Positions 1,454 through 16,319 of a stretch of 64,000 nt of DNA are shown here, piece by piece. The notes beneath the pieces are model-generated. The model was not told the DNA's origin and ran no database searches. It saw only the letters and a program-made list of their open reading frames with translations. Positions within the stretch are counted from its first letter, which is position 1; every line of letters begins with the position of its first letter. The stretch is taken from NCBI GenBank assembly GCA_041691135.1, contig JBEPVF010000008.1, positions 921 through 64,920 of the forward strand, given 5' to 3'. This DNA comes from Candidatus Peribacteria bacterium (GTDB taxonomy: Bacteria; Patescibacteriota; Gracilibacteria; Peribacterales; Peribacteraceae). The translations under genes were made by a program, and so were the position numbers.

Positions 1454-4363
1454 ATGCCTATGCCCACTCCTCGATCCGGTCCCGGCGATGATCTAAGAAA
1501 TCAAGATTCTTTAGAGAATCCACTTTCAGATGCTCCTGAAGAGCAGAATAGAGAAGAAGCGGGCTTCATAGAATCTACTCGCGAGACACTTTCCGCTCGC
1601 GCAAAGGAAGCAATCGAATTGCCATCGAACCGAACCGTCCTCGATGTCCCCATTGAATTTTGTAGTGAGGGCAAGAAAATTGAAACACAGAACAGAAAAG
1701 GTACATATGTTGTTCGTGTAAATGCCAGGCGCTTTCGCAGCCGCGAAGATGCAGAGCGTGCCGGTATTCTTCAAGCCGCGTATCTTCGCTCTCTCCGCGA
1801 CCACTTACAGACCGAAACAGGTAAAGCATTTGAGGCGCTGCAATTATTCGGTACTGCTGCCCACAGCGCTCTACGTTTCAAGGGACTCAAGATGATGTCG
1901 GAGTGGGAGAAGGGAGAGACTTCTCCTTTGACAGCTACTTCTGAGACACCTCTCACACTTGCGCAAATCTTTGATCGCAGTCTTGAGCACTATGTTCTTA
2001 CCGGAATATTACCTGAAGCGATTCCGAACGAAGTTCGTCAGGCATTGGAAAAGATTCCAGGTCGCCAAGGGAAGAGCGCCCTCGATTTTATCGCAGAGAA
2101 TAGCCGATCTCTTAGGAGCAGCGCGAAACTGTACGAAGAACACATTGCCCCTCTGCGAGAACATTTAAAGGAAGAAGATGGGGAGAAGCGCATGACTGAG
2201 CGCGATGACTATGTCCCGCCTGACGGGAAAGGAGAGCAGGCACCTCTTGATCCGGAAAGCGTACGATGGAGAGTAGAGCCATTCGTGGGCGGTTACTACC
2301 GTCAGCAACTATTCCGATACGATCCAGCTGCACAAAAAATCGTTGCAGAACCGACAGATAAAACAGAGTTTCGCCTTACGGATGTTCCGGAGAATATAGA
2401 TGAATTGAAGCGTTACACGTTCCGCGGAGTGTTCGTCCCCGGCGAAGAAAACCGTATTCCATTTCCCGAAAAGGGACTGCCGCTTCCTGACACTCTCGAT
2501 CCAAAAGGAACATTTCGGCTCTATAGAAGTTCGGCAGGTATTTTTTCTCTCGAGGAAAAGCAAGAAGGCACTGTCACCGAACCCATGCAGTATTCTTTTG
2601 AGTTCGTTCTTGCCAGAAACAGCGATAACCGAATTGATGATGATCCAACCGAAGCCGATCTCATAACGATTGAGGGTCCACTGGATGCTACTGCGGAAGA
2701 ATTGCTTTCAGGTTTAAAACAAAACACTTTCCTTGGAAAAGCAGATCGCGGACGCACAGTCGTTTTTGCCACTCGCAAGCAGTTTACGTATCCGAAAGAG
2801 GAAGAAATGCCAGCAATGAATGAGCGATACGGGGTAGCTGGATCAAATCTTCACCCCGAAATGGCTGATCTTAAGCTCGCAGACTGCCATTGGAGCAACA
2901 TCCGGGCGTCCGATCTCGGACGGAGGTTGGATGTCCCCATGCGTACTCCAAGTGGCTTTTTCGTTACCCGTCACCCTGATGTAGATTTCGCCCCTGTTGG
3001 CGGTATCGGCCATGCATGGAGTGAGCGATGGGACGAGACATCAGAGCAGTGGATTCGCACAGATGCGACACCACCGAAGCAGAATGAAGACGAAGATGAA
3101 GAAGAGAACGAGGAAGATCAGCCTGCCTCAGCTCCTGCCGCTGCGGGTGAAAGAGAGACGAAGGTGGGTGAAAATGATGCAGAGAATGAAGTGGAGGAAA
3201 GCGGTGTCCTTGAGATGAATGAAGACGAGATTTCAAAACTTTTGGAACTCGTAACGCAGTCCACTCCTTCGGCGCAGGAAGTCGCAGAAGAATTATTCAG
3301 ACAGCGCACAAATGTTTCGGCAGCAGATTGGAAAAAGGTTGAGGGATTTGTGGAGACCGTGAATGCAACTCAGGTCGCACCTGAGGCGCAGATTCCTGAA
3401 ACACCGGAACTACTTCGCAACTTCCGTGAACGCATCACAGCTCCGAAAGGAACACTCGAGCGAGAATGGCAAAAACTCTTCTGCCTTATCTGCACCCACC
3501 GCGAGGTACGTCGTCGCAAATTCCCCGGCAATGTCCGTCAGAGTGAGAGCACAACGGGACTAGATAACCCGGTTGATGCGTACATTGATATTATGGCTGA
3601 CGAAAGCGATCCGATGGGATTTGGAATCGATACGCGGAGACCAGAAACTATTCTTGATGTGAAAGCCTTCGAGGAAGATGCGCTCGTCGACCTTACGTCT
3701 TCTATGGACGATACAGACAGCAAAGGAAACGTGATGCGCATTGAGCAGAAGAAAATGATTCTGTCGCTTTTGTCTCACCTCATGGAATTGAACGAAGAAC
3801 TGAATGATTCCCGCGTTCGTTCCACACTCCGTACACCACTCAAAATCCGCTCGGAGATTTATTCCATTCATGGACAAGGAAAGAAAAACCAAGGGCAGTT
3901 CGCTCGCCTCAAGGCCGCAGATGAAGACATTACGGAAGCCGCTCTCGTTCATCTTGCGCGAGAACTTGATCAGACCACACCCGGCGCGGGAGACTTCTTG
4001 AGCGCACTTCAGGCTTACAGAAACGGCATCTCCCCTGAGACTCTGCAAAAAATTCGCTCGGGGGATATTGTGAAACTGCTTACAATCTATTCCGATGGCA
4101 ATCACTGGTGCAGTAACTGCGGCTCCGAATCGTGCAACGTCCAGATCCATGCGGATCGCGTTCGCGCGGCGCAGGAGGAAATCGCTAAAATTCGAGAGCT
4201 TGGGATCATTGTGCAGGGCATCGGATTCACGAAAAAAGCTGAAGCGATCAAGATCATGTGCCATGATCCTAATGAGCCGGGCGGAGCCATTGTGGTTAAT
4301 GATGTCTCCCGAGCCGTATCAGCCAGGCATGCGATGCTAACGAAGCATTTACGAAACCTATAA
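1454..4363 (+). CDS. transglutaminase-like Cys-protease domain / poly-acidic linker / C-terminal vWA domain protein
   Basis: 969 aa. Cys-His-Asp core pattern ADCHWSN ... GHAWSERW ... IRTDATP, then an acidic run NEDEDEEENEED. C-terminal MIDAS-like DLTSSMD plus LLTIYSDGN is typical of vWA. No signal peptide seen. Confidence 0.7.
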   Translation: MPMPTPRSGPGDDLRNQDSLENPLSDAPEEQNREEAGFIESTRETLSARAKEAIELPSNRTVLDVPIEFCSEGKKIETQNRKGTYVVRVNARRFRSREDAERAGILQAAYLRSLRDHLQTETGKAFEALQLFGTAAHSALRFKGLKMMSEWEKGETSPLTATSETPLTLAQIFDRSLEHYVLTGILPEAIPNEVRQALEKIPGRQGKSALDFIAENSRSLRSSAKLYEEHIAPLREHLKEEDGEKRMTERDDYVPPDGKGEQAPLDPESVRWRVEPFVGGYYRQQLFRYDPAAQKIVAEPTDKTEFRLTDVPENIDELKRYTFRGVFVPGEENRIPFPEKGLPLPDTLDPKGTFRLYRSSAGIFSLEEKQEGTVTEPMQYSFEFVLARNSDNRIDDDPTEADLITIEGPLDATAEELLSGLKQNTFLGKADRGRTVVFATRKQFTYPKEEEMPAMNERYGVAGSNLHPEMADLKLADCHWSNIRASDLGRRLDVPMRTPSGFFVTRHPDVDFAPVGGIGHAWSERWDETSEQWIRTDATPPKQNEDEDEEENEEDQPASAPAAAGERETKVGENDAENEVEESGVLEMNEDEISKLLELVTQSTPSAQEVAEELFRQRTNVSAADWKKVEGFVETVNATQVAPEAQIPETPELLRNFRERITAPKGTLEREWQKLFCLICTHREVRRRKFPGNVRQSESTTGLDNPVDAYIDIMADESDPMGFGIDTRRPETILDVKAFEEDALVDLTSSMDDTDSKGNVMRIEQKKMILSLLSHLMELNEELNDSRVRSTLRTPLKIRSEIYSIHGQGKKNQGQFARLKAADEDITEAALVHLARELDQTTPGAGDFLSALQAYRNGISPETLQKIRSGDIVKLLTIYSDGNHWCSNCGSESCNVQIHADRVRAAQEEIAKIRELGIIVQGIGFTKKAEAIKIMCHDPNEPGGAIVVNDVSRAVSARHAMLTKHLRNL

Positions 4364-4368
4364 AATAA

Positions 4369-4376
4369 TGTATAAT
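4369..4376 (+). promoter_or_regulatory. candidate -10 element (TGTATAAT)
   Basis: tgtataat in the 29-bp AT-rich gap before the ATG at 4393. Confidence 0.3.
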
Positions 4377-4392
4377 ATTAAGAAATCCCTCT

Positions 4393-7206
4393 ATGCCTAC
4401 CAAGAAGCTCACAGGCGCACCCCTCGATCCTCCTGAAAGAGAGGATTCTCCTCCAGAAGGTGGAGAAAAGGCCACATCCCGCAAGATCAATGTTGTTCGA
4501 GAAGCAATGCGTCTTGGACTAGATCTGTCTGCTTTGCGTTTGGATCAGTTCGCTCCGCAAGATGGCGGGCATGTTGGCACGAATGGAGTACCGCTAGGTA
4601 CCGAAGACGTGAGACGCAAGGCGTTAGAAACACTCCATCTGCTCGATGAATACAACCGCGTGAAACTCGCACCGAGCAAGGCTTCTCTGGGGAAGCAGGA
4701 TGATTTATTTGAGGGAATTGAAAGTCTTGATGATTTCATTTCAGCTCTCGATACCAGCAAAGATAAAGGTGGTGAAAAGAAAACAGAGCCGACGCAAAAA
4801 TTCAGACGGGAGGAATTAGCGGATCGCATCAGCGAACTTCTTTCAGAGCCACAAGTGTATCAACTCCTGCGTCAGTCATTAACAAAGGAAACCGAGCGCT
4901 TTGTCGCCGTCCAACCGCTCTTGTCGCGGTTGCACAAGCTGCGCCAAGTGCAGGACATTGCTTTCGAGCGCATTCACACGCTCTCACTCGAGAGTAAACG
5001 TACTCACGGCAAGATCGTGGGATCAGTACAGACGGCCATTGAAAAGCTTTCGCGTCTTAGTAAGGAAGCAGATGAAGAGGAGAACCGCTTGGAAGAGGAG
5101 GCAAGTCCCTTGGAAAAGGGATGGATCGCCTCGCAGCGACTTCTTGAATATAAGCAGCAGATGAAGAAAGACCGTTTCGTCATGACTCCGAGTCGTCGTG
5201 CAATCCTCGATGAGATGATTGCGAAACTCGGAAGCAAAGGCCGAGTACTTCTGCTTGGTTCCAACGGCACAGGAAAGACGGAGCTAGCGGCAAAAGCCCT
5301 CAAGCTCACATCGAACGGCTATCACCTTGTTCCGTGGCAGGAAGCGACAACCGGACAGGATATTTTCGGACGCCAAGAGATTCGCCGTCAGAATGGTCAT
5401 GTAGAAAGCGGCCTTCGCCCCGGTCCGATGACTCGCGCCATCGAAGCGAAGGGTGACGAGCCAGCGGGTGTCCTGCATGATGAATTGAACCTCGGAAGCC
5501 TTCGCACTATTTATCTCTTGAAGAAGCTCTGGAACAGCCGTCCGGGGCAGGAAGTGGATGTGCCTGTGCTCGATGAGAAGCGAATGCTGCCACTTAACTA
5601 TGCCGAGGTGTATACGGCAAACCCGAAGGATGAGCGTACGAGCAATCGCGAGGAATTCGATGCGGGTATCACTCGTGTCCTCGGTGGTATGAATGTTCCG
5701 TTCCTTGCTCAAAACGAGCAGGAGCAGATTATTCTTGCAAAGCTCATTGATGAGAATGGCGTATTACATCTCTCGAAGAGCGAAGCACAAACTATCCGCG
5801 AACTTGTTGCTGCAGCAGTCATGACACAACAGTGCTTTGATCGTGCGTTTGCAGATCTAGGTGATGAGGCACTTGGTGAGATCAAAAAAATGACGGGTAT
5901 TTCTGATCTGAGACTGACGAAGAAATTCCTCGATCCAGGTCGTCTGATGGAAATGTTTGATACCTATGAGCAGAAGCGGGCAGAAGGAATGAGTGTGGCG
6001 GATTATCTTTCTGGAGAATTGAAGAAATTCCTTGCTGAATTTGAAGTGGAGGAAGAGCGAAATATCGCAATTGCCATTCTTAAATTGAAAGGTGTTATTG
6101 CTGCCGATAGCACAGCTACAGAACCGCATGTTCAGGTTCTAAAGAAGCCGGGTGAGAAGCCGTATCTACTTCCTTCCGAGCTTGCATTCGTTGTCTCTTG
6201 TGATGATGAATTGGATGATTCGGATATTGAATTCGATCAACCAGAGATCAGTATAGAAGATGTCCTTGCGACCGATGGTGCCGAACTTTTGGAATTTCTC
6301 AATAAAGGATCACCTGATGGGATTCGAGCGAAGACCCGTAGAGGTGTTGCCGAAGCACTCGGTACGTCACAGAAAACAATTGATCGTGCTCGCCAGATCA
6401 TGCTTGAAAAATGCGGAGAGGGTCACTTCTATGGCCCAAGTGAACTGGAGAAGACCTTCCCCGGAATGAAAATTGATCTGAAGGACGTTCCTACGCTGCC
6501 TTCCGAGAGCGAGATTCAGCGTCATGCTGCTCTTGGTCAAGCATTGCGCCTTCGCATCAGCAAAGCTCCGGATGGATCGAAATTAACGATGCAGAAAATG
6601 CATCAACTTCTTCAGGATGAGTTCACCAAGAGCAAAGATGGCAAAGTGCTCTATAGCGCCGAAGATGAATGGAAGTTGAAATCGACATTCTTTACGGAAG
6701 AAGTGCCGGAGCTTGCTTGGGGATTCACTTCTGATGAAGTGCTGCCGAATTCTACGGGCAAAAACCACCTGCAGCAGACACAATTGATCGCCGAATACGC
6801 TAAAAGCACACTCTTTAAGAGTGAGCAAATGCCGCAGGAATACCGCGAAGCAATGGCGGAATTAACCGCTCAGCAGAATGAAATTCAGCAGCTCATGAGC
6901 AGCGATTGGAAAGCTGCCGCAGACAGATTGGCGAATCTGAAAATCAATAAGCTCATGCGCGCCACTCCCGTCGAAACTCTCTGTGATCTTCTCGTCACGT
7001 TCCGCAACAGTGATCCGAAGAAGCGCAAACGCTTACTTGAGAAGAAACTGACATGGACAGCTACTCAAAGCTCGGACGGTTTCCTCGTCTTCGTCGGCCG
7101 CTTCGCTCCGGACGGCGTGTACGTCAACGACTGGTCTCCGGACTACTCGCATGACGATCTCGGGGTTGTCCTCGCTCGGAAGTTCCCTAGAGCCTTGCGC
7201 ACTTGA
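4393..7206 (+). CDS. AAA+ ATPase (MoxR/AAA_5-like) fused to a C-terminal DGR-diversified domain (DGR target 1)
   Basis: 937 aa. Walker A LLGSNGTGKT, Walker B GVLHDELN. The last ~260 aa are paralogous to ORF 7288-8310 and end in VR-1, which matches TR except at TR adenines. Confidence 0.85.
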   Translation: MPTKKLTGAPLDPPEREDSPPEGGEKATSRKINVVREAMRLGLDLSALRLDQFAPQDGGHVGTNGVPLGTEDVRRKALETLHLLDEYNRVKLAPSKASLGKQDDLFEGIESLDDFISALDTSKDKGGEKKTEPTQKFRREELADRISELLSEPQVYQLLRQSLTKETERFVAVQPLLSRLHKLRQVQDIAFERIHTLSLESKRTHGKIVGSVQTAIEKLSRLSKEADEEENRLEEEASPLEKGWIASQRLLEYKQQMKKDRFVMTPSRRAILDEMIAKLGSKGRVLLLGSNGTGKTELAAKALKLTSNGYHLVPWQEATTGQDIFGRQEIRRQNGHVESGLRPGPMTRAIEAKGDEPAGVLHDELNLGSLRTIYLLKKLWNSRPGQEVDVPVLDEKRMLPLNYAEVYTANPKDERTSNREEFDAGITRVLGGMNVPFLAQNEQEQIILAKLIDENGVLHLSKSEAQTIRELVAAAVMTQQCFDRAFADLGDEALGEIKKMTGISDLRLTKKFLDPGRLMEMFDTYEQKRAEGMSVADYLSGELKKFLAEFEVEEERNIAIAILKLKGVIAADSTATEPHVQVLKKPGEKPYLLPSELAFVVSCDDELDDSDIEFDQPEISIEDVLATDGAELLEFLNKGSPDGIRAKTRRGVAEALGTSQKTIDRARQIMLEKCGEGHFYGPSELEKTFPGMKIDLKDVPTLPSESEIQRHAALGQALRLRISKAPDGSKLTMQKMHQLLQDEFTKSKDGKVLYSAEDEWKLKSTFFTEEVPELAWGFTSDEVLPNSTGKNHLQQTQLIAEYAKSTLFKSEQMPQEYREAMAELTAQQNEIQQLMSSDWKAAADRLANLKINKLMRATPVETLCDLLVTFRNSDPKKRKRLLEKKLTWTATQSSDGFLVFVGRFAPDGVYVNDWSPDYSHDDLGVVLARKFPRALRT
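7069..7186 (+). repeat. DGR variable repeat VR-1
   Basis: 118-nt gap-free match to TR 8726-8843. By hand alignment, 14 mismatches, all at TR adenines, plus one non-A difference near the 3' edge (TR aaC vs VR aaG). Confidence 0.9.
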
Positions 7207-7262
7207 ATGCTTGAACTTCCTCGATTCCTTTTTCCTTGAAGCATCCGCTACTGACGAATTTT
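7187..7262 (+). repeat. conserved post-VR element, copy 1
   Basis: ~75 bp directly after VR-1. About three-quarters identical by eye to the stretch after VR-2. Contains cttga(a) repeats and the shared block ccttgaagcatccgctac (7234-7251). Confidence 0.5.
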
Positions 7263-7287
7263 CACCTCCTGTTGTCTCTCACTCTCA

Positions 7288-8310
7288 ATGCCACGCGAAG
7301 TACTCCATACGTTCATCCGGCAACTCAAAGAAAGTACTGCCTACAAAGATCATGTGGGCGTTCGCACTGTTGTCGATGAGACAGTTCAAAGAATTGCCGC
7401 TCTGTCGGAAGAAGACGGCGGTCCACAGCTCCGAGAGGAAATACAGAGCTTACATGAACGTATTGTCCCTCTCCTGCATGGAACAAATGCGCCGAAGGGA
7501 AAGGAGAGAAAGGGAAATTCGATCAATCCCAAGGAGGCAGAAACCATCATGGGCAGAGACCATTTCTTCGGCGCAGAGGCCGTTGCCAAGGCTTTCCCGG
7601 GCATCCCACTCAAACCGGAGCAGATTCCAGCTATACCGTTCTCCAAAGAAGACCTACAACGAGCCAAGGAACTTGGAGACAGTCTCCGTCTGCGGGTGAG
7701 TAAAGCGCCGGGTAACGGCAACTTGAGCATGGAGAAGATGCAGGAACTGTTGCAGCCAACCTTCGACCAAAAGAACGAAGGAAAGGTTTTGTATGATACC
7801 GACTGGTACGAGGGTGAGGACTTCTTCAAGGAAGCCCCTGAACTCTGCTGGGTGCTTACATCGGATGGAATCATTCCGGATTCCGAAGACAAAGATTATC
7901 TCCAGCAGACGGAACATATTGCCGAGTACCTTCGTGAGACGGTTTATAAGGGCAAAAAACTTCCGCAGCAATACAGCGATGCAATCAAGGAAATGGAAAC
8001 TCAGAAAGATGAGATCCGTCGCCTTATCGATGCTAATGACTGGCAGAAAGCAGCTGAAAAACTTGCGAATCTTACACTCAACAAACTCACGCGCCGCGTC
8101 CCTGTTGAAGTGCTCTATGACATGCTTGTGACATTCCAGAATGGTGATAAGCGCCATCTGGAAGATTTCTATGATTGGACAGGTGTCCGCAGCTCGGTCG
8201 GTCGCCTCGTCCACGTCGGCCCCTTCGATCCGGACGGCGTGGGCGTCGACGACTGGTCTCCGAGCGGCTCGGATGACGCTCTCGGGGTTGTCCTCGCTCG
8301 GAAGTTCTGA
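7288..8310 (+). CDS. DGR target protein 2 (stand-alone paralog of the C-terminal module of the AAA+ protein)
   Basis: 340 aa. Residues from DHFFGAEAV onward align with GHFYGPSEL... of ORF 4393-7206. Ends ...DWSPSGSDDALGVVLARKF, encoded by VR-2. Confidence 0.85.
   Translation: MPREVLHTFIRQLKESTAYKDHVGVRTVVDETVQRIAALSEEDGGPQLREEIQSLHERIVPLLHGTNAPKGKERKGNSINPKEAETIMGRDHFFGAEAVAKAFPGIPLKPEQIPAIPFSKEDLQRAKELGDSLRLRVSKAPGNGNLSMEKMQELLQPTFDQKNEGKVLYDTDWYEGEDFFKEAPELCWVLTSDGIIPDSEDKDYLQQTEHIAEYLRETVYKGKKLPQQYSDAIKEMETQKDEIRRLIDANDWQKAAEKLANLTLNKLTRRVPVEVLYDMLVTFQNGDKRHLEDFYDWTGVRSSVGRLVHVGPFDPDGVGVDDWSPSGSDDALGVVLARKF
8191..8307 (+). repeat. DGR variable repeat VR-2
   Basis: Gap-free match to TR. 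By hand alignment, 17 mismatches inside the block, all at TR adenines. Same aaG vs TR aaC boundary difference as VR-1. Confidence 0.9.
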
Positions 8311-8380
8311 GCCTTGAGGTCTTGAAAGCTTGATCCTCCTTGAATCCTTTACTCTTGAAGCATCCGCTACAGGCGATTTT
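8308..8380 (+). repeat. conserved post-VR element, copy 2
   Basis: gccttgaggtcttgaaagcttgatcctccttgaatcctttactcttgaagcatccgctac... is homologous to 7187-7262. Confidence 0.5.
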
Positions 8381-8725
8381 GTCGGATTTTGCACTGGATG
8401 CTGGCTTCATTTGCATCATAGGATGCATTTGCGGCCCGTTCTTGCAGTCAGGGTTACGGCTCTGGCTCACGGTACGCCTCATCTCTGCTACCACTGAAGC
8501 GGTCAGCGTAGGTGGAAACTCACCAGAATACCGTGCCTCTACGGAGCACAGTAGCGAGTGGGCTTAGATGTGAAGGAACTTCTTGCTCATTCTCAGACTC
8601 GGTATCGTTTCCCAAGATGATTGCGGGCGAATCAAATTCAGGGGAAAGAGGATATAGCCCAGTGTTTTTTGTTTGGCTGGGGGTAAACCTCGATCTCCGG
8701 TGTCTCGGACGGGAGTGAGCAACAC

Positions 8726-8843
8726 AGCTCGGACGGTAACCTCGTCAACGTCGGCAACTTCGATCCGGACGGCGTGAACGTCAACAACTGGAATCCGAAC
8801 AACTCGAATGACGATCTCGGGGTTGTCCTCGCTCGGAACTTCC
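8726..8843 (+). repeat. DGR template repeat (TR)
   Basis: Non-coding. In the VR frame it reads SSDGNLVNVGNFDPDGVNVNNWNPNNSNDDLGVVLARNF, with 10 AAY codons. The only differences from both VRs inside the block are at its adenines. It may extend 5' to ~8721. Confidence 0.9.
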
Positions 8844-8858
8844 TTCTCGGTAATCCAG

Positions 8859-8881
8859 GGGACTCTCGCCTTCAGAGTCCC
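8859..8881. other. 8-bp stem-loop just 3' of TR and 3' of avd
   Basis: gggactct-cgccttc-agagtccc lies between the TR end (8843) and the avd stop codon (8887-8889). Confidence 0.35.
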
Positions 8882-8886
8882 TTGGG

Positions 8887-9237
8887 TTATCCCTCGCGTG
8901 TCGATTTGATCCATCCGCCGAGCATGCGTCCAATCTCATCAATCATTTCCTGAATGAGAGCGTACTTCTTCAGGTCGATGGCCTTTACGTCCTTGGCGAG
9001 ACGAAGGAAGACACGGAGAACATTGAGCTTAAGGCTGACGCGCTCAAGCGGTTCCAGTTTCTGTGCTTTGCGTACTTGGCTGGCAAGAATGATGCCTTCC
9101 AATACCTCCAGCACGAGATTCTCGCAGCGAGGCCAGAGCGCAGTGCGATCTTGTTTGGAAATAGATGCCCGAAACTCATAGAGCTTCTTGGTTAGTTCGT
9201 AGGCCTTCTTGAAAATTGGGATATCTAATTCTTCCAT
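8887..9237 (-). CDS. avd: DGR accessory variability determinant (Avd, four-helix-bundle family)
   Basis: 116 aa from the internal ATG at 9237: MEELDIPIFKKAYELTKKLYEF...IDEIGRMLGGWIKSTREG. Size and pattern are typical of Avd / 23S-IVS four-helix-bundle proteins. Opposite strand to TR and RT. Confidence 0.8.
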   Translation of the reverse strand: MEELDIPIFKKAYELTKKLYEFRASISKQDRTALWPRCENLVLEVLEGIILASQVRKAQKLEPLERVSLKLNVLRVFLRLAKDVKAIDLKKYALIQEMIDEIGRMLGGWIKSTREG

Positions 9238-9250
9238 AACGACATAAAGC

Positions 9251-10300
9251 ATGAAAGTACACAAGCATATCTTCGAGCGGATCATTACGCCAGAGAACTT
9301 ATTCCAAGCTTGGGAGGAGTTCCGCAGAGGCAAGGGATCTCGAAAAGACGTACAGGCGTTCGAGTGGCAGCTTGAACAGAACATCCTGTCTCTTTGTCGG
9401 GATCTGCGTAGCCGGACGTACAGACATGGGGAATATTCGGCTTTTTCGATCTGTGATCCGAAGCAGCGCCGGATACATAAAGCGGCTGTACGTGATCGCA
9501 TACTTCATCACGCAATTTTTAAGGTGTTGAATCCCATCTTCGAGCCGACGTTTATTGCACATTCCTATTCCTGTCGTGAGGGGAAAGGAACACACAAGGC
9601 AGTTGATACATTGGAAACGTGGCTGCGAAAAGTCAGCCAAAATTGTAGGGTGCCGTGTTTTGCTCTCAAGTGTGACATCCAACAATTCTTCGCCTCAGTC
9701 GATCATGCAATCCTGCTCTCGATCCTTGATCGGAAGATCAAAGACCCTGATGCGATGTGGCTGCTGAAGGAGGTAGTGGAGAGTTTCTCCACGCCTGTGC
9801 AAGAAAATGAACGTCCCAAAGGTATTCCTATCGGCAATCTCACTTCGCAGTTATTTGCGAACGTGTACTTGAACGAGTTCGATCAATTCATGAAGCAAAA
9901 ACTACGCATCCGTCACTACGTTCGGTACACAGATGATTTTGTGATCGTGAGTTCAGACAAGTCTGCATTGGAGAATCTGATTCCAGTCATGCAGGAATTT
10001 CTCAGTGAAACTATGTTTCTCAAACTGCATCCTCGAAAAATCATCCTTCGCAAATTCGGTCAGGGCATCGACTTCCTCGGATATGTCATCCTGCCTCACT
10101 ATCGTGTACTTCGGACTCGGACAAAACAGCGAATGTTTCGGAAACTCAAGCTCCGAGTGGTTAGCTTTAAGACTGGTAAGGGTAGCGAGTCGTCTGTTGA
10201 GTGTTCACTCCAGTCCTATCTTGGCGTTCTATCGCATGCGAATACTGAACAGCTCACTGAGGAGTTGAAAAACCAATGCTGGTTTTGGATGTGCGAATAG
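9251..10300 (+). CDS. DGR-type reverse transcriptase
   Basis: 349 aa. IPIGNLTSQLFANVYLNEFD is the DGR-specific [I/L]GxxxSQ motif; catalytic YVRYTDDFVIV. Adjacent to TR and Avd. Confidence 0.9.
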   Translation: MKVHKHIFERIITPENLFQAWEEFRRGKGSRKDVQAFEWQLEQNILSLCRDLRSRTYRHGEYSAFSICDPKQRRIHKAAVRDRILHHAIFKVLNPIFEPTFIAHSYSCREGKGTHKAVDTLETWLRKVSQNCRVPCFALKCDIQQFFASVDHAILLSILDRKIKDPDAMWLLKEVVESFSTPVQENERPKGIPIGNLTSQLFANVYLNEFDQFMKQKLRIRHYVRYTDDFVIVSSDKSALENLIPVMQEFLSETMFLKLHPRKIILRKFGQGIDFLGYVILPHYRVLRTRTKQRMFRKLKLRVVSFKTGKGSESSVECSLQSYLGVLSHANTEQLTEELKNQCWFWMCE

Positions 10301-10404
10301 CATCAAGTCCTTAAAGCATCCACTCTTAATGGCTTTCTATGCGTCAAGTTGACGTTACAAAAGCGACCAAAAACGTTACGATGGACTGCAATCCGCCCCT
10401 TTGA

Positions 10405-11859
10405 ATGCTCACAAAATCCGACTATCTCCGGTACCTCGAATGTCCCATCCATCTTTGGATACACAAGCATCGATCCCATGAGGTCGGTCATCATATTGAT
10501 CCTCAACTTCAGTGGATCTTCGAGCAGGGGGACAGAGTGGAAGCATACGCACGTAGCCTCTTTCCCGATGCCGAGATAGTCAGCGGCCACTCGCAAAAAT
10601 CTGAGGAGCAGACTAAGGCATTAATTGAGTCAGGGGTTACAGACATATTCCAAGCGACGGCGATTGCGGATGGATTGCTCGCTATGGCTGACGTTTTCCA
10701 GCTCGATCCTGAAACGCAGGAATGGAATTTGTATGAAGTGAAAAGTACGAGTGAACTCCAAGATGGGCATCTACATGATGTGTGTTTTCAGATGATTGCC
10801 TTTAAGAAAGCGGGATACACCATGGGCAAGCTTCATCTCATCCACATCAATCCCAATTACGTAAGACGCGGAGAGATAGATGCACGTTCCTTGTTGGTCA
10901 TTGAAGACATCACGGAACAGGTCTATTCCTTGGAAGCGGAGGTGCTTGTCCAGATTGCTGCTGCGAAACAGGTTGAAGCATCAGCTGACATGCCATCGTG
11001 TGACGGCTGTACGTGCTCACCCAAGGACTGCTTTTGCCATCACTATTGCTACCCCGATCTTCCGGATTACTCTGTCTTTCAACTCAGTCGTATCAAGGTA
11101 AAACAGGCCCGTGATCTCTATCGCAAAGGAATTCGTAATCTTCTCGAGATTCCTCCGGACTTCAAGCTCACAGCAGCGCAAGCACTACAGTTGCAAGTCG
11201 TCCGCACTGGAAAACCCGTCATCGATACGAGGAGCATCAGCACTATCCTGAATACGACGAAATACCCCCTCGCTTTTCTCGACTACGAAACGTTCTTTCC
11301 GGCTGTGCCACTCTTTGACGGATACAAGCCCTATCAACAGATGGTTTTTCAGTACTCGCTTCACGTCTTGTTGGAAGATGGAACGCTACAGCATTCTGAA
11401 TGTCTTGTGCGAACTCTTGTCGATCCTGTGTCAGAGATCCTTCGTACTCTACGGTCCCAGCTTCCTGAAAATGGAACGGTTGTGGTGTGGAACAAGGGGT
11501 TTGAGATGGGGAGGAACGAAGAAATGGCCGCGCTCTTGCCCGATCAGGCGGTTTTCCTTCGTTCGCTCAATAGCAGGGTCTTCGATCTCATGGAAATCTT
11601 CAGCAAACACCACTATGTACACCCCGATTTCCGGGGAAGTTACTCGATTAAAAAAGTCTTACCCGTTCTAGTGCCATCTCTGTCTTATAAGGATCTGGAA
11701 ATTCAAGAAGGCGGAACAGCCTCACTGACGTGGTATCGGATGCTTACCGATGGACGCAGTGAGGTCGAGAAGCTGAAGACGCGTGAGGCCATGCTCGCAT
11801 ATTGTAAACTTGATACGTTGGCGATGGTCGAAGTTTTTCGATGTTTGAAGGCTTTGTAG
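10405..11859 (+). CDS. DUF2779-like protein (predicted PD-(D/E)xK / Cas4-like nuclease with Cys cluster)
   Basis: 484 aa. N-terminus MLTKSDYLRYLECPIHLWI, LYEVKSTS motif, Cys cluster CDGCTCSPKDCFCHHYC. Family assignment is from memory of DUF2779 signatures. Confidence 0.55.
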   Translation: MLTKSDYLRYLECPIHLWIHKHRSHEVGHHIDPQLQWIFEQGDRVEAYARSLFPDAEIVSGHSQKSEEQTKALIESGVTDIFQATAIADGLLAMADVFQLDPETQEWNLYEVKSTSELQDGHLHDVCFQMIAFKKAGYTMGKLHLIHINPNYVRRGEIDARSLLVIEDITEQVYSLEAEVLVQIAAAKQVEASADMPSCDGCTCSPKDCFCHHYCYPDLPDYSVFQLSRIKVKQARDLYRKGIRNLLEIPPDFKLTAAQALQLQVVRTGKPVIDTRSISTILNTTKYPLAFLDYETFFPAVPLFDGYKPYQQMVFQYSLHVLLEDGTLQHSECLVRTLVDPVSEILRTLRSQLPENGTVVVWNKGFEMGRNEEMAALLPDQAVFLRSLNSRVFDLMEIFSKHHYVHPDFRGSYSIKKVLPVLVPSLSYKDLEIQEGGTASLTWYRMLTDGRSEVEKLKTREAMLAYCKLDTLAMVEVFRCLKAL

Positions 11860-11889: not shown

Positions 11890-12440
11890 TTCCACCGCAA
11901 AACCCCCTCCGTCAGGAGGGGGGATGAAGTCGGTCCGGCGTCTTCCCGTCCCGTGGAATGGTAGGATTTCCCTATGCAGCAGATCTTCAGGAAGCAATCC
12001 AACTGCGTCTATCACTGCACCTATCATCTCATCCTCTGTACAAAGTACCGTCGGAAAATCTTCAATGACGGCGTCTTTGCGTATATGAAAGCCACCCTCA
12101 AAGAACTTCCCGCCCATTACCCTGAGATCGAGATCCTCGAGATCAATCACGATCAGGACCACATCCATCTCCTTCTCTGGATTCCGCCTAAAATGGCCAT
12201 CGGAAAGGTAGTTTCTATCCTTAAATCCAACACCGCCCGCCATCTCAAGAAGAAGTTCCCTTTTCTCAAAGAGGTCTACTGGGGAACGGAAGGCATCTGG
12301 TCAGACAGCTACTTCGTCTCCACCGTGGGCATCAATGAAGACGTCATCCGGAGGTACATCGAACACCAGGGGAGGGAGGACGCCGGACAGCATCAGCTGA
12401 AACTCGTGTAAGCCACCACCGTCAGGTGGTGGTAGTTCAC
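11890..12440 (+). mobile_element. IS200/IS605-family insertion sequence (tnpA only)
   Basis: tnpA is flanked by two 8-bp-stem hairpins with the same GTCA loop: ccccctcc-gtca-ggaggggg (11903-11922) and ccaccacc-gtca-ggtggtgg (12413-12432). Exact ends not determined. Confidence 0.7.
11974..12411 (+). CDS. tnpA: IS200/IS605 family Y1 (HUH) transposase TnpA
   Basis: 145 aa. YHLILCTKYRRKIF, HUH motif DHIHLLL, catalytic-Tyr region SDSYFVSTVG. Confidence 0.85.
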   Translation: MQQIFRKQSNCVYHCTYHLILCTKYRRKIFNDGVFAYMKATLKELPAHYPEIEILEINHDQDHIHLLLWIPPKMAIGKVVSILKSNTARHLKKKFPFLKEVYWGTEGIWSDSYFVSTVGINEDVIRRYIEHQGREDAGQHQLKLV

Positions 12441-12672: not shown

Positions 12673-13167
12673 TCATTCGTGCGGGAATGTATACAGGATG
12701 CCAAAGACATCATTGACCAAACGAAGAGGGTACTGACACAAGAGACACCACGAATAACCTCTGATCTTCGCAACGACATCAGGGGGGACTGTCATTTTTG
12801 AATATACGACCAAGGGCACTTTTGCAGCCTGCACACGCTTCAAAATTTCATCGAAGTGCTGCATGCCTTCCCCGTATGCCACTATCACAAGACCATGATC
12901 CGTGATCCGATCCGCCATTTGGAAATTACTGCACGGCTGTTCCTCAACATTAAAGAAGCTGATGTCGCGGAGCATCTGGGTTTCTATTTCCATATCCATC
13001 CCCTCACATTTGAAAATCATGATGGGTCGCTTTGCATTTCGGAAGAGCCGGATTTCTTTGCTGTAGATGAAGCGCAAGATGGTATACAGAGCTATCGCTC
13101 CAACTGCACCTCCAATCAAAGCCGAGATCAGCGTTTGTATATTGAAGATGAAATTTAAAATATCCAT
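12673..13167 (-). CDS. small single-TM protein in the CBASS effector position (unrecognised family)
   Basis: 164 aa. Hydrophobic N-terminus ILNFIFNIQTLISALIGGAVGAIALYTILRFIY, then ~125 aa with an alternating beta/alpha-looking pattern. Starts 6 bp after the Trip13-like gene's stop. Confidence 0.6.
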   Translation of the reverse strand: MDILNFIFNIQTLISALIGGAVGAIALYTILRFIYSKEIRLFRNAKRPIMIFKCEGMDMEIETQMLRDISFFNVEEQPCSNFQMADRITDHGLVIVAYGEGMQHFDEILKRVQAAKVPLVVYSKMTVPPDVVAKIRGYSWCLLCQYPLRLVNDVFGILYTFPHE

Positions 13168-13173
13168 AGTGTT

Positions 13174-14115
13174 TTAGTGTAGCAGGGAATGGGAAGAAGC
13201 TTCTGCCTCTTTGAAGGGAGGCGTAGGTACGAATGCCTCAACGATCGCCTCTGCATGCTTGAAGGAAACACGGTGATCTGGGATTGCATCAAAAAGGATA
13301 GTCGGGAGAAGACGCTGGATTATGTCCGAGAACGTGCAGCCATATCCGTCTTCCCCATGGGAGGTCTTCTTGGCGAGTGTGCCAATCTGTGCTTGTGTGA
13401 TCCCGGTTTCAGCGAGGTATTTGCCGAGAATATAAGCGCATTGCTCTTGATTGGGTCTTCCGAATTCAAAAACCTCAGCAGCCCGGCGCTTGATGGCGGG
13501 ATCGAGTGCGCCAACGCGGTTCGTGCACATCACCACGATCACTGGTAGTCCTGCACCCATGAGGCTATCGATGCCCCGGATGAGCGCGTTCACACCAGCC
13601 CTATCCTCGTGGTGCATCTGATCCGCCTCGCGTGACTGAGCCAGCGCGTCTGCCTCGTCGATCAGGAGCACAATCGCAGAGGACGGCTTCTTGCCGCTCG
13701 ACAAACCTTTTTTCGCTGCTTCTCTCACCTTCTGGAATGCATTTGTAATCAAGGTTGTCATCTGGCCGACTGCTCCGATGCCTCTTGCCGTGAGGCTTAA
13801 TCGGTATAGGCGAACAATTATCTCTTCCTGCCGCGCGATAGGATCGGCGAAACTCTCGGCGAGGGCTGTCTTTCCAGCTCCCACGTCTCCAGCGAAGACA
13901 AAGAGAGGTGAGCGACTGCGGATGAGTTCGACAATAGGTAGGACGCGGCGATGGTGCTTTTCGCTCCATTCGTTCAGCAGGTGGGGATTGAACATGATGC
14001 GGGTTTCTTTCAGCAAACGATCCTTCATTTCATCGAGTCCGACCAGCGCTGCAAAACGCTTTGCAGCATCTTGGTTGGGGAATTCGATGGTTTCTTCAAA
14101 GATGTCTTGGTCCAT
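13174..14115 (-). CDS. Trip13/Pch2-like AAA+ ATPase (CBASS type III accessory)
   Basis: 313 aa. Walker A FAGDVGAGKT, Walker B VLLIDEADALAQS. Sits in the HORMA/Trip13 operon context. Confidence 0.8.
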   Translation of the reverse strand: MDQDIFEETIEFPNQDAAKRFAALVGLDEMKDRLLKETRIMFNPHLLNEWSEKHHRRVLPIVELIRSRSPLFVFAGDVGAGKTALAESFADPIARQEEIIVRLYRLSLTARGIGAVGQMTTLITNAFQKVREAAKKGLSSGKKPSSAIVLLIDEADALAQSREADQMHHEDRAGVNALIRGIDSLMGAGLPVIVVMCTNRVGALDPAIKRRAAEVFEFGRPNQEQCAYILGKYLAETGITQAQIGTLAKKTSHGEDGYGCTFSDIIQRLLPTILFDAIPDHRVSFKHAEAIVEAFVPTPPFKEAEASSHSLLH

Positions 14116-14117
14116 GG

Positions 14118-14624
14118 TTAGAGGGGTTTCAGGGTGCGACGCAGGACTGCTCCGCCACCATTGGAATATGTTTTATCATAAGTCCATACGCCGTCTGCTC
14201 CGGGCTGCTCTGCGCCAGTGCGCTGGATGGGCAGCGCTGATTCGATTTTTGCCTGCTCGTAGGTGGTCAAGTCATCAAACTTTTGGTTCTTCGTCAGGAA
14301 GGACTTCCAAGTAGCACCGGCGATGTCTGCCCTTGCCGGTACGCGACCAGGAGAATCGTTTGTGAAGATGCTTCCCCATTGGGCGTTGTAACTCAATGCC
14401 GCCCCTCCGACCCAATTGCCGTTCCTCTGGAAGCCATACTCGACCGAATCAAGGTAGCCGTCCAACATAAGCAGGATGACTTCGTCAATGTACGTCGCTA
14501 TCCGCTCGTCGTTGGGCTGTCCATAGAACCGCTGCATCTGGCGGAGATCGGCTGCCACCTTCGATGCGAGGTAGACGGCGTGGGTCCGGGTGAAGGTTGA
14601 GGTGGTCGTGAAGGTGGTAGTCAT
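14118..14624 (-). CDS. bacterial HORMA-domain protein (CBASS type III accessory)
   Basis: 168 aa from the ATG at 14624, which overlaps the CD-NTase stop as ATGA. MTTTFTTTSTFTRTHAVYLASKVAADLRQMQRFYG resembles bacterial HORMA N-termini as I recall them. Position is between the NTase and the Trip13-like gene. Confidence 0.7.
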   Translation of the reverse strand: MTTTFTTTSTFTRTHAVYLASKVAADLRQMQRFYGQPNDERIATYIDEVILLMLDGYLDSVEYGFQRNGNWVGGAALSYNAQWGSIFTNDSPGRVPARADIAGATWKSFLTKNQKFDDLTTYEQAKIESALPIQRTGAEQPGADGVWTYDKTYSNGGGAVLRRTLKPL

Positions 14625-15658
14625 GCGTCTATGGTGAAAGAGGGGCCAAGAATAGATTGCCACTTCTCCAGCGCCCGGCCTTTCGTCGTGGCATGGTGAG
14701 CTTCCGCAAGTGCATCAAGCGCGTCGTATGCCGCATCCACGATCTTTTGACGTTCCAGATCGGTGTACCTACGAGCGATATTATTCTCCGGGTTCACAGG
14801 GTCGAAAATCTGGATAGGTACGCTTTCGTCGGCTGGAAGTTCGCTCGCCTCGTAGTTGTCGGTGAAGTAGATGCGCTCCCGTAGTTCCGATTGAATGATG
14901 TAGGCGAAGAACTGCTCCAACGCCAAAGGATAGTTGCTCAGATCGATCAGGCTGTTATCGGCCAAGTGGGCACAGAGCAATTCGACCATGAAGGACTTGA
15001 ATCGGAACGAGTCGTCGTCTGCCCGCCTCTGCCGCACCCACCATTTTACGAGTCGGACGATCTGTCGGTAGTGCTTCGGGTATTCCTCCTTACGCTTCCG
15101 GATGAAGGCGAGGTGTAGGGGGATGCTCGTCAGGATGCGGTCACCAGTGTCCTTCGTGATAAGGTATCCCCGGTCCTCGCGGTCGTCTTCGTAAATGACC
15201 GGCACCACATCTACGTCCAGACCGCTTCCCCGAAAGGAGATGGTGACACAGTGCTGCTTTGGGATGATCTGGCTGGGGTCCAGATTCGAGTATGCCTCTC
15301 TCAGCCGTGCAACGAGCCATTCATGAAGTCGCTTTTCGTCGGCGGTTTCGTCCGAGGGGCGGATGTAGACCGCGACGTCCATGTCGTTGATGGTCTTCAA
15401 GGCCGTCCCCTTCGCGATGCTTCCCGCATGCAACATCTTTACGAGATCGTAATCGGGGTGATCGTAGATATAGTTTTCGAGCTTCTCGCGGAGCCGGTCG
15501 ACCTGCTCTCGCAGTTCGGCGACGTCTTCCCGTTTCAGGTTCACCTGCCTGTCGGCGAAGGTGACAATGTGGCCGTGCTGCACGAATGGTGCAGCCAAAA
15601 CGCTTGAGGTTGATGACATAATTCTGACCGAGGGTACAGAAATCCTGTATGAAGTCAA
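14621..15658 (-). CDS. CD-NTase (cGAS/DncV-like nucleotidyltransferase, CdnC-like)
   Basis: 345 aa. Pol-beta NTase signature GSIAKGTALKTINDMDVAVYI, third acidic strand GSGLDVDVVPV. Start is ambiguous: TTG at 15658 or ATG at 15619. Confidence 0.8.
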   Translation of the reverse strand: MTSYRISVPSVRIMSSTSSVLAAPFVQHGHIVTFADRQVNLKREDVAELREQVDRLREKLENYIYDHPDYDLVKMLHAGSIAKGTALKTINDMDVAVYIRPSDETADEKRLHEWLVARLREAYSNLDPSQIIPKQHCVTISFRGSGLDVDVVPVIYEDDREDRGYLITKDTGDRILTSIPLHLAFIRKRKEEYPKHYRQIVRLVKWWVRQRRADDDSFRFKSFMVELLCAHLADNSLIDLSNYPLALEQFFAYIIQSELRERIYFTDNYEASELPADESVPIQIFDPVNPENNIARRYTDLERQKIVDAAYDALDALAEAHHATTKGRALEKWQSILGPSFTIDA

Positions 15659-15693
15659 TAACGTCTTGCAAACCTGTATGGGCGCGGCTACAG
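15635..15693. promoter_or_regulatory. two operator-like palindromes in the CBASS / LexA-like divergent region
   Basis: TACAG-aaatc-CTGTA (15635-15649) and CTGTA-N10-TACAG (15674-15693). Both use the same 5-mer half-sites. Confidence 0.35.
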
Positions 15694-15701
15694 TAAGCCC
15701 A

Positions 15702-16319
15702 ATGAAGCCACTCCATCACCTCCAAGCGAAATTGCTTGAAGCGCTCCGCGACGTTCCGGAGGGAGGTTACTCGCTCGAAGAACTACGCAGAGCGATTGGA
15801 GCTTCTTACAAAAGTCAGGTTGTGCACCATATGGAACAATTGGAAATGAAGGGGTTGATCAAAAACGATCCTGACAATCCTGATAACTACATCATATTCA
15901 ACGAACAGGAAGGCTCCGAGGAACCATTTTTCTTCATGCCCGTTCTAGCCTTAGCTTCTGCGGGCAAGGGAATGGATAACTCCCATCATGTCATTGAAAG
16001 AATCCCCGTTCGTTCAAAAATGATTCCATGCAAAATGGATGATGCCTTTCTTGTGCAGGCGGATGGGGATTCGATGGAGCCACGCATACACCATAAAGAT
16101 TTTCTTGTAGTGGAACGACTTAAAAGTGATCGCGAGCCGCTTGGGCAGATTGTTGTTTGTGAAGAAGGACACGAGGTGAAAGTAAAACAATTCACTCGAT
16201 CCGGAGGTTCAATAGTTCTTGTGTCTTTAAATCAAAAATACGATCCGTACGTTGTAACTAATCCTGATAATTTCCGAATACATGGAATCGTTCGCAGCGT
16301 GTTATTTTCTAAGCTCTAA
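15702..16319 (+). CDS. LexA/CI-like repressor (winged HTH + S24 peptidase)
   Basis: 205 aa from the ATG at 15702. LLEALRDVPEGGYSLEELRRAIG...HHMEQLEMKGLI looks like a wHTH. Nucleophile motif ADGDSMEP and a downstream Lys (VKVKQF). Confidence 0.75.
   Translation: MKPLHHLQAKLLEALRDVPEGGYSLEELRRAIGASYKSQVVHHMEQLEMKGLIKNDPDNPDNYIIFNEQEGSEEPFFFMPVLALASAGKGMDNSHHVIERIPVRSKMIPCKMDDAFLVQADGDSMEPRIHHKDFLVVERLKSDREPLGQIVVCEEGHEVKVKQFTRSGGSIVLVSLNQKYDPYVVTNPDNFRIHGIVRSVLFSKL

Follow-up and report, generated by a model that had tools for sequence, protein, structure and literature searches.

A bitopic membrane protein with a receiver-like domain as the very probable effector of a type III CBASS operon from Candidatus Peribacteria

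Which gene acts as the effector of the type III antiphage signalling system based on cyclic oligonucleotides (CBASS) carried by a Candidatus Peribacteria contig? The stretch analysed here, referred to as the window, comprises 64,000 nucleotides of contig JBEPVF010000008.1 (positions 921 to 64,920). The candidate is an ATG-started open reading frame (ORF) on the minus strand (12673..13167), which encodes a protein of 164 amino acids consisting of a single transmembrane (TM) helix and a cytoplasmic, receiver-like (β-α)5 domain. We consider this protein very probably to be the effector of the CBASS operon in the window. Taking all lines of evidence together, our best reading, to which we assign a rough probability of 0.7, is that of a cyclic-trinucleotide-gated, membrane-disrupting abortive-infection effector.

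The candidate is the terminal gene of an intact operon in which it follows a CdnC-like cyclase, a HORMA protein and a TRIP13 ATPase, all encoded on the minus strand. The first gene encodes a cGAS/DncV-like nucleotidyltransferase (CD-NTase) of the CdnC type (14621..15619), which comprises 332 amino acids from the called ATG, with an ORF reaching 15658, and matches NCBIfam CBASS_cyclase_a (2.7e-124) and the PADLOC Cyclase model (4.9e-128); the active-site motif GS...DMD is readable in its translation. The bacterial HORMA protein (Cap7, 14118..14624) has 168 amino acids from the called start, for which the L028 gene call is cited, and its ORF reaches 14663; it matches Pfam bacHORMA_1 (4.7e-49) and PADLOC HORMA (1.5e-60). 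The TRIP13-like AAA+ ATPase (Cap6, 13174..14115) matches PADLOC TRIP13 (9.3e-118, profile positions 5-301 of 302) and Pfam AAA, and contains a Walker A motif (GAGKT) and a Walker B motif (LLIDEAD). The effector candidate starts 6 nt past the TRIP13 stop codon. The operon thus combines a CD-NTase with its active-site motif, HORMA and TRIP13 proteins, and an effector gene, which together define type III CBASS. Profile scans with PADLOC, Pfam and NCBIfam revealed no other effector-like gene adjoining it. Scans for promoters and terminators returned sites no more numerous than in shuffled sequence.

Compared to its homologue in locus L001, the effector gene differs in 24% of its nucleotides while the encoded proteins are 84% identical. 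This corresponds to a dN of 0.118, a dS of 2.14 and a dN/dS of 0.055; the gene is under strong purifying selection. Because of this ratio, and because relatives of like length and architecture exist, we regard the ORF as a real gene. An exhaustive profile search over 1.84 billion representative proteins yielded 101 relatives, mostly of 155-190 amino acids and aligned across nearly their full length, and approximately 100 clusters (50% identity) have matching length and architecture. Alignment, conservation analysis and model scans were performed with 85 family members. One protein, P0072 (1184 amino acids), was matched seven times by profile residues 74-129; it looks like a tandem array of a domain sub-fragment and was excluded from all analyses. 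When the family profile was used in a word-indexed search, the hits were only proteins labelled 'hypothetical', together with one JGI entry named 'cell division protein FtsX', which is probably a mis-annotation. The tblastn searches against plasmid and phage collections gave no match.

Two PADLOC models cover the protein almost entirely, namely PDLC01057, 'C3a59, trans-membrane (TM)' (7.6e-21, profile positions 12-164 of 167), and PDLC00664, 'Effector, 1TM' (2.3e-7, profile positions 13-168 of 174). The former matches 84 of the 85 family members and the latter 60. A further PADLOC model, 'Mem_04', weakly matches 13 of the 85; it is described as a membrane protein of type III operons that 'could be a CARF domain diverged beyond' recognition. 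The initial annotation, made from the window sequence, had assigned the gene to the CBASS effector position. The location of the gene, last in the operon after TRIP13, and its matches to PADLOC effector models confirm this assignment. The description of the protein as unrecognised does not hold, given the two full-length PADLOC models and a published account of Cam2, a protein of TM helix and receiver (REC) domain. The family is already catalogued but experimentally uncharacterised, and the window protein is another member of it.

The genomic company of the homologues was analysed in 27 distinct loci whose effector proteins share 20-85% identity with the window protein. These loci form a convenience sample, with 16 obtained by a scan for a single peptide pattern and 11 by exact-protein look-ups. 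They originate from Patescibacteria (including Saccharibacteria), Planctomycetota (including Brocadia), Gammaproteobacteria, Elusimicrobia and unclassified metagenome contigs. A CD-NTase is adjacent or lies within the same operon in 21 of the 27, and all 16 immediate downstream neighbours that were scanned hit PADLOC models of the Cyclase type (E <= 1e-10). The CBASS contexts comprise type III loci (the window and L001), type II loci with Cap2 and Cap3 (L029 and L031), E2-only or type II-short loci (L006, L007, L009, L011 and others), and two-gene type I loci (L020, L024 and L030). Two further loci (L002/L003 and L025/L026) lie on cut contigs with TRIP13 directly upstream of the homologue, and a third cut contig (L013) leaves its context undecidable. 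The remaining three homologues are located at the ends of type III CRISPR-cas operons (L004 and L005 of type III-D, L023 of type III-B). In L004 and L005, the homologue follows three csm3/cas7 genes and csx19, while in L023 it follows cmr3, a RAMP gene, cmr5, a second RAMP gene and cas6, and the Cas10 fragment of this locus keeps its GGDD motif. These CRISPR-linked homologues show 36-49% identity (n=3). No locus outside both CBASS and type III CRISPR contexts was present among the 27. Recurrence of homologues beside CD-NTases had been proposed as a check on the effector assignment, and is what we observe. A family common outside CBASS and never linked to CD-NTases, which would have spoken against the assignment, is not what the 21 CD-NTase-linked and three type III CRISPR loci describe.

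In a neighbour-joining tree, CRISPR-linked and CBASS-linked members interleave, and the two lineages of type III CBASS do not group as sisters. Because of this interleaving, we regard the family as a portable signal-activated effector module, a pattern known for NucC and TIR-SAVED. Two observations on individual loci are added here. In L030, whose contig spans 1.8 Mb, a two-gene cassette of effector and cyclase (SMODS+AGS_C) is flanked by hsdS and hsdR of a type I restriction-modification operon (2954-11044). In L023, a 302-amino-acid protein without a Pfam match (6448-7356) is encoded between cas6 and the homologue, with overlapping stop and start codons, and may be a second ancillary protein.

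The sampled loci also bear on the possibility that the true effector, for example NucC, was lost where an IS200 element has inserted, leaving the 164-amino-acid ORF as a bystander. An IS200/IS605 Y1 transposase gene (11974..12411, plus strand; Pfam Y1_Tnp 5.7e-35) does lie approximately 260 nt downstream, convergent with the effector gene and not part of the system, and NucC is the usual last gene of E. coli CdnC operons, with which the naming of PDB entries is consistent. However, the 3' end of the effector gene is intact at this distance, the C-terminus of the protein aligns to the end of its homologues, and the gene is intact and under the purifying selection described above. Furthermore, in L002/L003, which encode a 72%-identical effector in the same orientation as in the window, the gene is followed by a convergent helix-turn-helix gene, with no nuclease, no other canonical effector and no IS200-like transposase in the available downstream sequence. 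L025/L026, which represent another type III CBASS lineage, likewise place the homologue after TRIP13, and the linkage to cyclases in 21 of 27 loci is difficult to reconcile with a bystander. In L020, L024 and L030, which come from other phyla, a protein of the 164-amino-acid type is the only effector-like gene. The loss of an effector at the IS200 site, which the initial annotation had offered as an alternative, is therefore not borne out, and we consider it very improbable.

A second alternative is that the protein is an accessory or regulatory membrane protein, such as an anchor, a signal sink or an immunity factor, and not the killing effector. Cam2 has been found together with NucC or SAVED-CHAT in a small number of CRISPR loci (PMC11229360), and in L023 and L025 uncharacterised genes adjoin the homologue. 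The arrangement of two loci points in the same direction, as the effector gene of L001 and that of L031 lie on the strand opposite to the cyclase operon. In L001 the effector gene (134-650, compared to 12678-13208 in the window) is inverted relative to the cyclase, HORMA and TRIP13 genes and convergent with TRIP13, so that their stop codons overlap, and TATAAT-like boxes are found upstream of its own start; in L031 the effector gene is divergent from the cyclase gene. On the other side, the homologue is the sole partner of the cyclase in the two-gene operons of L020, L024 and L030, and a CBASS system requires an effector. PADLOC classes the family as effector, and the architecture parallels that of the proven TM effectors Cap15, Cap14, Cam1 and Csx23. 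An accessory function is therefore unlikely, although it is the least improbable of the alternatives considered here.

Turning to the architecture of the protein, a single hydropathy peak is seen at residues 13-31 (Kyte-Doolittle 19-residue mean of 2.14), and 70 of the 85 family members contain exactly one hydrophobic segment (Kyte-Doolittle >=1.6). From this peak, the flanking charges and the structural model, the TM helix is placed at approximately residues 10-34 (QTLISALIGGAVGAIALYTILRFIY; 13066..13140, minus strand), with the N-terminus outside. The mean net charge of the flanks across the 85 relatives is -1 on the N-terminal side and +4.5 in the 15 residues after the helix. By the positive-inside rule, these charges place the soluble domain in the cytoplasm (N-out/C-in). 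In the model, the TM segment is part of a continuous helix spanning residues 2-46 that runs straight into the (β-α)5 domain. It is joined to strand β1 by a conserved juxtamembrane collar, K37-E38-x-R40-L41-x-x-N44-x-K46-R47-P48 (13024..13059, minus strand), identified by column conservation across the 85 sequences, where N44 is conserved in 94%, R47 in 81% (a basic residue in 98%), R40 in 76% and K37 in 64%. A GxxxG motif was considered as an argument for oligomerisation and dropped, since it is present in the TM helix of only 19 of the 85 members and is not conserved.

The cytoplasmic domain comprises residues 48-162 (12682..13026, minus strand), as delimited by the secondary structure of the model, Foldseek, hhalign and conservation. 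An AlphaFold2 model built from the 85-sequence alignment, which replaced a run with five close sequences (predicted local distance difference test score, pLDDT, of 68), reached a pLDDT of 93.5 and a predicted template-modelling score (pTM) of 0.81, and consists of a long helix and a (β-α)5 domain. The model contains the strands PIMIFK (48-53), LVIVAY (93-98), LVVYS (119-123) and CLLC (141-144), while the second strand of the (β-α)5 domain is predicted in part only. The best Foldseek matches in the PDB are receiver domains (RstA, DesR, KdpE, CheY and PmrA) and the N-terminal domain of CpaE. These matches have E-values of ~2e-4 to 2e-3, target-normalised template-modelling scores (TM-scores) of 0.60-0.70 and root-mean-square deviations (rmsd) of 3.2-3.8 Å. 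No CARF, SAVED, Cap15, Csx23 or TIR structure is found among the best 50 of 1,705 Foldseek PDB matches. A search of a viral structure library returned the same kinds of fold. At the sequence level, a profile search of the PDB gave generic or designed Rossmann proteins only (best E = 0.0023) and did not find Cap15, Cap14, Cam1 or Csx23. Scanning the protein against Pfam and NCBIfam, and its 85 relatives against Pfam, gave nothing significant; the sole hit, a sirtuin model (0.039), was discarded. The initial annotation had described one N-terminal hydrophobic helix, followed by the strands PIMIFK, GLVIVAY, VPLVVYS and SWCLLCQ of a small Rossmann- or receiver-like fold that was neither a Cap15-type barrel nor a SAVED domain. 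Hydropathy, flank charge and the AlphaFold model agree on the helix, all four segments are strands in the model, and AlphaFold and Foldseek together support the fold.

With response-regulator receiver domains as the best structural matches, one may ask whether the protein acts as an ordinary two-component receiver that takes its phosphate from a histidine kinase. An hhalign comparison with CheY (14% probability, used only to locate the phospho-acceptor column) places D57 of CheY opposite A97, where the family consensus is G, and the acidic pair after β1 is absent from the family consensus. Since both the phospho-acceptor aspartate and the acidic pair are missing, the domain is, on sequence grounds, not a working phospho-receiver. 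Moreover, no histidine kinase was seen in the 27 loci, and Pfam Response_reg matches none of the 85 members. We regard a two-component function as close to negligible. The domain shares with CheY and other REC proteins the (β-α)5 topology, but it differs from them in lacking the phospho-acceptor aspartate, the acidic Mg2+-binding pair, a kinase partner and a Response_reg match, and in being fused to a TM helix.

Past the collar, the best-conserved polar positions are E62, Y98, P118, Y122, Y138, N/Q145, P147, R149 and D153, with conservation across the 85 sequences of 80% for E62, 84% for Y122, 92% for Y138 and 82% for R149. With the exception of the collar and E62, most of the conserved positions occupy C-terminal strand ends, which form the usual ligand face of REC-type folds. 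The strand-end residues Y98, Y122, Y138, N145 and R149 would probably make up the ligand-binding face.

The conserved polar residues E62, Y122, Y138 and R149 could also be read as part of an active site. According to this alternative, the protein would be a membrane-anchored enzyme whose Rossmann-like domain acts as a nucleotide or NAD hydrolase (TIR, DNPH1 or nucleoside 2-deoxyribosyltransferase-like) and depletes a metabolite upon activation. DNPH1 structures are indeed among the top Foldseek matches (E ~5e-4), and models of viral nucleoside 2-deoxyribosyltransferases were matched, as was one TIR-domain model far down (E ~3e-2). In terms of both TM-score (0.53-0.60) and rmsd (4-5.6 Å), however, DNPH1 fits slightly less well than the receiver domains. 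No acidic residue is invariant, no position being acidic in more than ~81% of the 85 members, and no Pfam enzyme family matches any of them. We argue from the lack of a near-invariant acidic residue that the domain binds a ligand and is not an enzyme. In addition, a stretch of ~120 residues cannot house a sensor as well as a catalytic domain, so that an enzyme of this size would be missing a separate sensor. An enzymatic effector is thus improbable, slightly more so than an accessory role.

The nature of the ligand can be approached through the partner cyclases. The closest solved structure to the window cyclase is CdnC of E. coli MS115-1 (PDB 6P80, E = 2.9e-99). Ye et al. and Lau et al. are said to have found in 2020 that this enzyme, together with HORMA and TRIP13, makes 3'3'3'-cAAA, which activates NucC. 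In the type II operon that encodes P0008, a 44%-identical effector, the neighbouring cyclase matches PDB entries named 'cyclic AMP-AMP-GMP synthase' (~1e-88). Type III CRISPR Cas10 enzymes also produce cyclic triadenylate (cA3). Based on the CdnC-like cyclase, the partner of P0008 resembling cyclic AMP-AMP-GMP (cAAG) synthases, and the cA3 made by Cas10, a cyclic trinucleotide is the most likely ligand.

We postulate the following course of events. Phage infection would activate the HORMA-bound CdnC-like cyclase, which would then make a cyclic trinucleotide, most likely 3'3'3'-cAAA. This nucleotide is hypothesized to bind the REC-like domains of an oligomer, probably at the face formed by the C-terminal strand ends with Y98, Y122, Y138, N145 and R149. 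Binding would re-pack the TM helices, and the membrane might thereby be permeabilised or depolarised, resulting in abortive infection. The specific pairing of ligand and output, a cyclic trinucleotide with membrane disruption, is held with somewhat less assurance than the reading as a whole and appears reasonably probable. More tentatively still, we lean slightly towards the view that a REC-fold domain without a phosphorylation site serves as a true cyclic-trinucleotide receptor. It would add a third sensor fold to CARF/SAVED and the Cap15 barrel and, combined with one TM helix, would constitute a minimal ligand-gated, membrane-disrupting effector that moves freely among CBASS types I-III and type III CRISPR.

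Several points weigh against this interpretation. The identity of the ligand is proposed from the partner cyclases alone, and many family members are accompanied by cyclases of the PADLOC PDLC00785 clade, which has no close solved relative, so that ligand specificity may vary across the family. The Foldseek E-values are modest (~2e-4) and the fold is generic, with nucleotide hydrolases of the DNPH1 type matching nearly as well. Given the inverted effector gene of L001 and the divergent one of L031, co-transcription with the cyclase is not obligatory. Finally, the literature searched contained no experimental datum on any family member.

Among known proteins, the closest counterpart by description is Cam2. 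Hoikkala, Graham and White (NAR 2024, PMC11229360) described Cam2, a protein of 26 type III CRISPR loci, as an N-terminal TM helical domain followed by a REC-fold domain at the C-terminus. Since NucC or SAVED-CHAT is encoded next to it in some cases, they predicted activation by cA3; perturbation of the membrane was predicted as well. They modelled Cam2 as a trimer and, from the CRISPR evidence alone, called it 'a priority for further study' (PMC11229360). The window protein shares with Cam2 the N-terminal TM helix, the REC-like C-terminal domain and the absence of a kinase partner (27 loci). The homologues in L004, L005 and L023 occur in type III CRISPR loci, and the ligand class proposed here is the same as the cA3 predicted for Cam2. 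In contrast, the window copy resides in a type III CBASS operon, and most of the sampled relatives are CBASS-linked. By description, and by the PADLOC 'C3a59' model, which its neighbours in the PADLOC library lead us to take for a CRISPR-accessory model, the family would correspond to Cam2. In the Cam2 paper, CBASS is not brought up with regard to Cam2 (PMC11229360). In the literature searched, there was no other work on Cam2 with type III CRISPR, and a search for 'C3a59' returned nothing relevant.

According to later papers that use it, the label '1TM' denotes one of the effector classes in the CBASS classification of Millman 2020. The window protein resembles this class in its full-length model match, its single TM helix and its effector position beside CD-NTases. 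In the accessible portions of those texts, however, the class is defined by the number of TM segments and operon position only, and is given neither a fold nor a ligand nor a mechanism.

Compared to NucC, the window protein occupies the same slot of a CdnC-HORMA-TRIP13 operon as in E. coli MS115-1, both effectors are distributed across CBASS and type III CRISPR, and a cyclic trinucleotide signal is probably common to both. However, NucC is a soluble hexameric DNA endonuclease, whereas the window protein is a bitopic membrane protein without nuclease motifs, and the two are related neither in sequence nor in fold. A closer parallel in architecture is provided by Cap15 and Cap14 of CBASS and by Cam1 and Csx23 of type III CRISPR, which combine N-terminal TM helices with a small cytoplasmic nucleotide sensor and lead to membrane disruption or ion leakage. 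Their sensors are a β-barrel (Cap15), a SAVED domain (Cap14), a CARF domain (Cam1) and a tetrameric fold of its own kind (Csx23), in contrast to the REC-like domain described here, and where their ligands are known, these are dinucleotides or cA4 instead of trinucleotides. Cap15 also differs in having two TM helices and a C-terminal β-barrel instead of one helix and an α/β sandwich. No Pfam match places the window protein or its 85 relatives in the CARF or SAVED families.

Among the classes of CBASS effectors, membrane proteins are reportedly the largest (>40%), yet few sensor folds have been characterised. With one helix and a 120-residue domain, whose fold is best known from two-component signalling, the family approaches the smallest effector that could be designed. 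The CBASS data add an argument for a cyclic trinucleotide that is independent of CRISPR, derived from partner cyclases of the CdnC and cAAG-synthase types, and in the sampled loci a CBASS cyclase neighbourhood is commoner than a CRISPR one (21 versus 3). The window furthermore supplies a defined four-gene operon that is directly testable in E. coli. The cross-link between CBASS and CRISPR and the ligand argument from CdnC are a modest addition, which leaves the kind of system unchanged and is useful rather than surprising.

Upstream of the operon, a LexA-like repressor gene (15678..16319, plus strand) is divergent from the cyclase gene. Its product combines an S24 peptidase domain (Pfam Peptidase_S24, 5.2e-21) with a LexA DNA-binding domain (LexA_DNA_bind, 8.5e-5, a match just under the Pfam gathering score) and is a candidate transcriptional regulator of the CBASS operon. 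LexA-like genes lie divergent from or directly upstream of effector-bearing CBASS operons in at least six loci of different phyla (the window, L001, L010, L014, L017 and L032), and in other homologue loci capH/capP-like pairs take their place. This distribution suggests a DNA-damage-responsive control by a type of regulator other than CapH/CapP or CapW.

Downstream, the IS200 transposase gene is directly followed by a perfect hairpin with an 8-bp stem, CCACCACC-GTCA-GGTGGTGG (~12413-12432), which is probably the subterminal structure of the element. A diversity-generating retroelement (4393-10300) adjoins the CBASS operon. It consists of a template repeat (~8723-8843), a reverse transcriptase gene (9251-10300, plus strand) and variable repeats at the 3' ends of a 937-amino-acid gene (7066-7186) and a 340-amino-acid gene (8190-8307), whose mismatches fall on template adenines in 14 of 16 and 17 of 18 cases, respectively. 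A putative Avd-like four-helix-bundle ORF, judged by eye, is located within 8887-9501 on the minus strand. Between the reverse transcriptase of the retroelement and the IS200 element, a DUF2779 protein of 484 amino acids (10405-11859, plus strand) shows weak Cas4/PD-(D/E)XK-like PADLOC matches and may be another defence-island gene.

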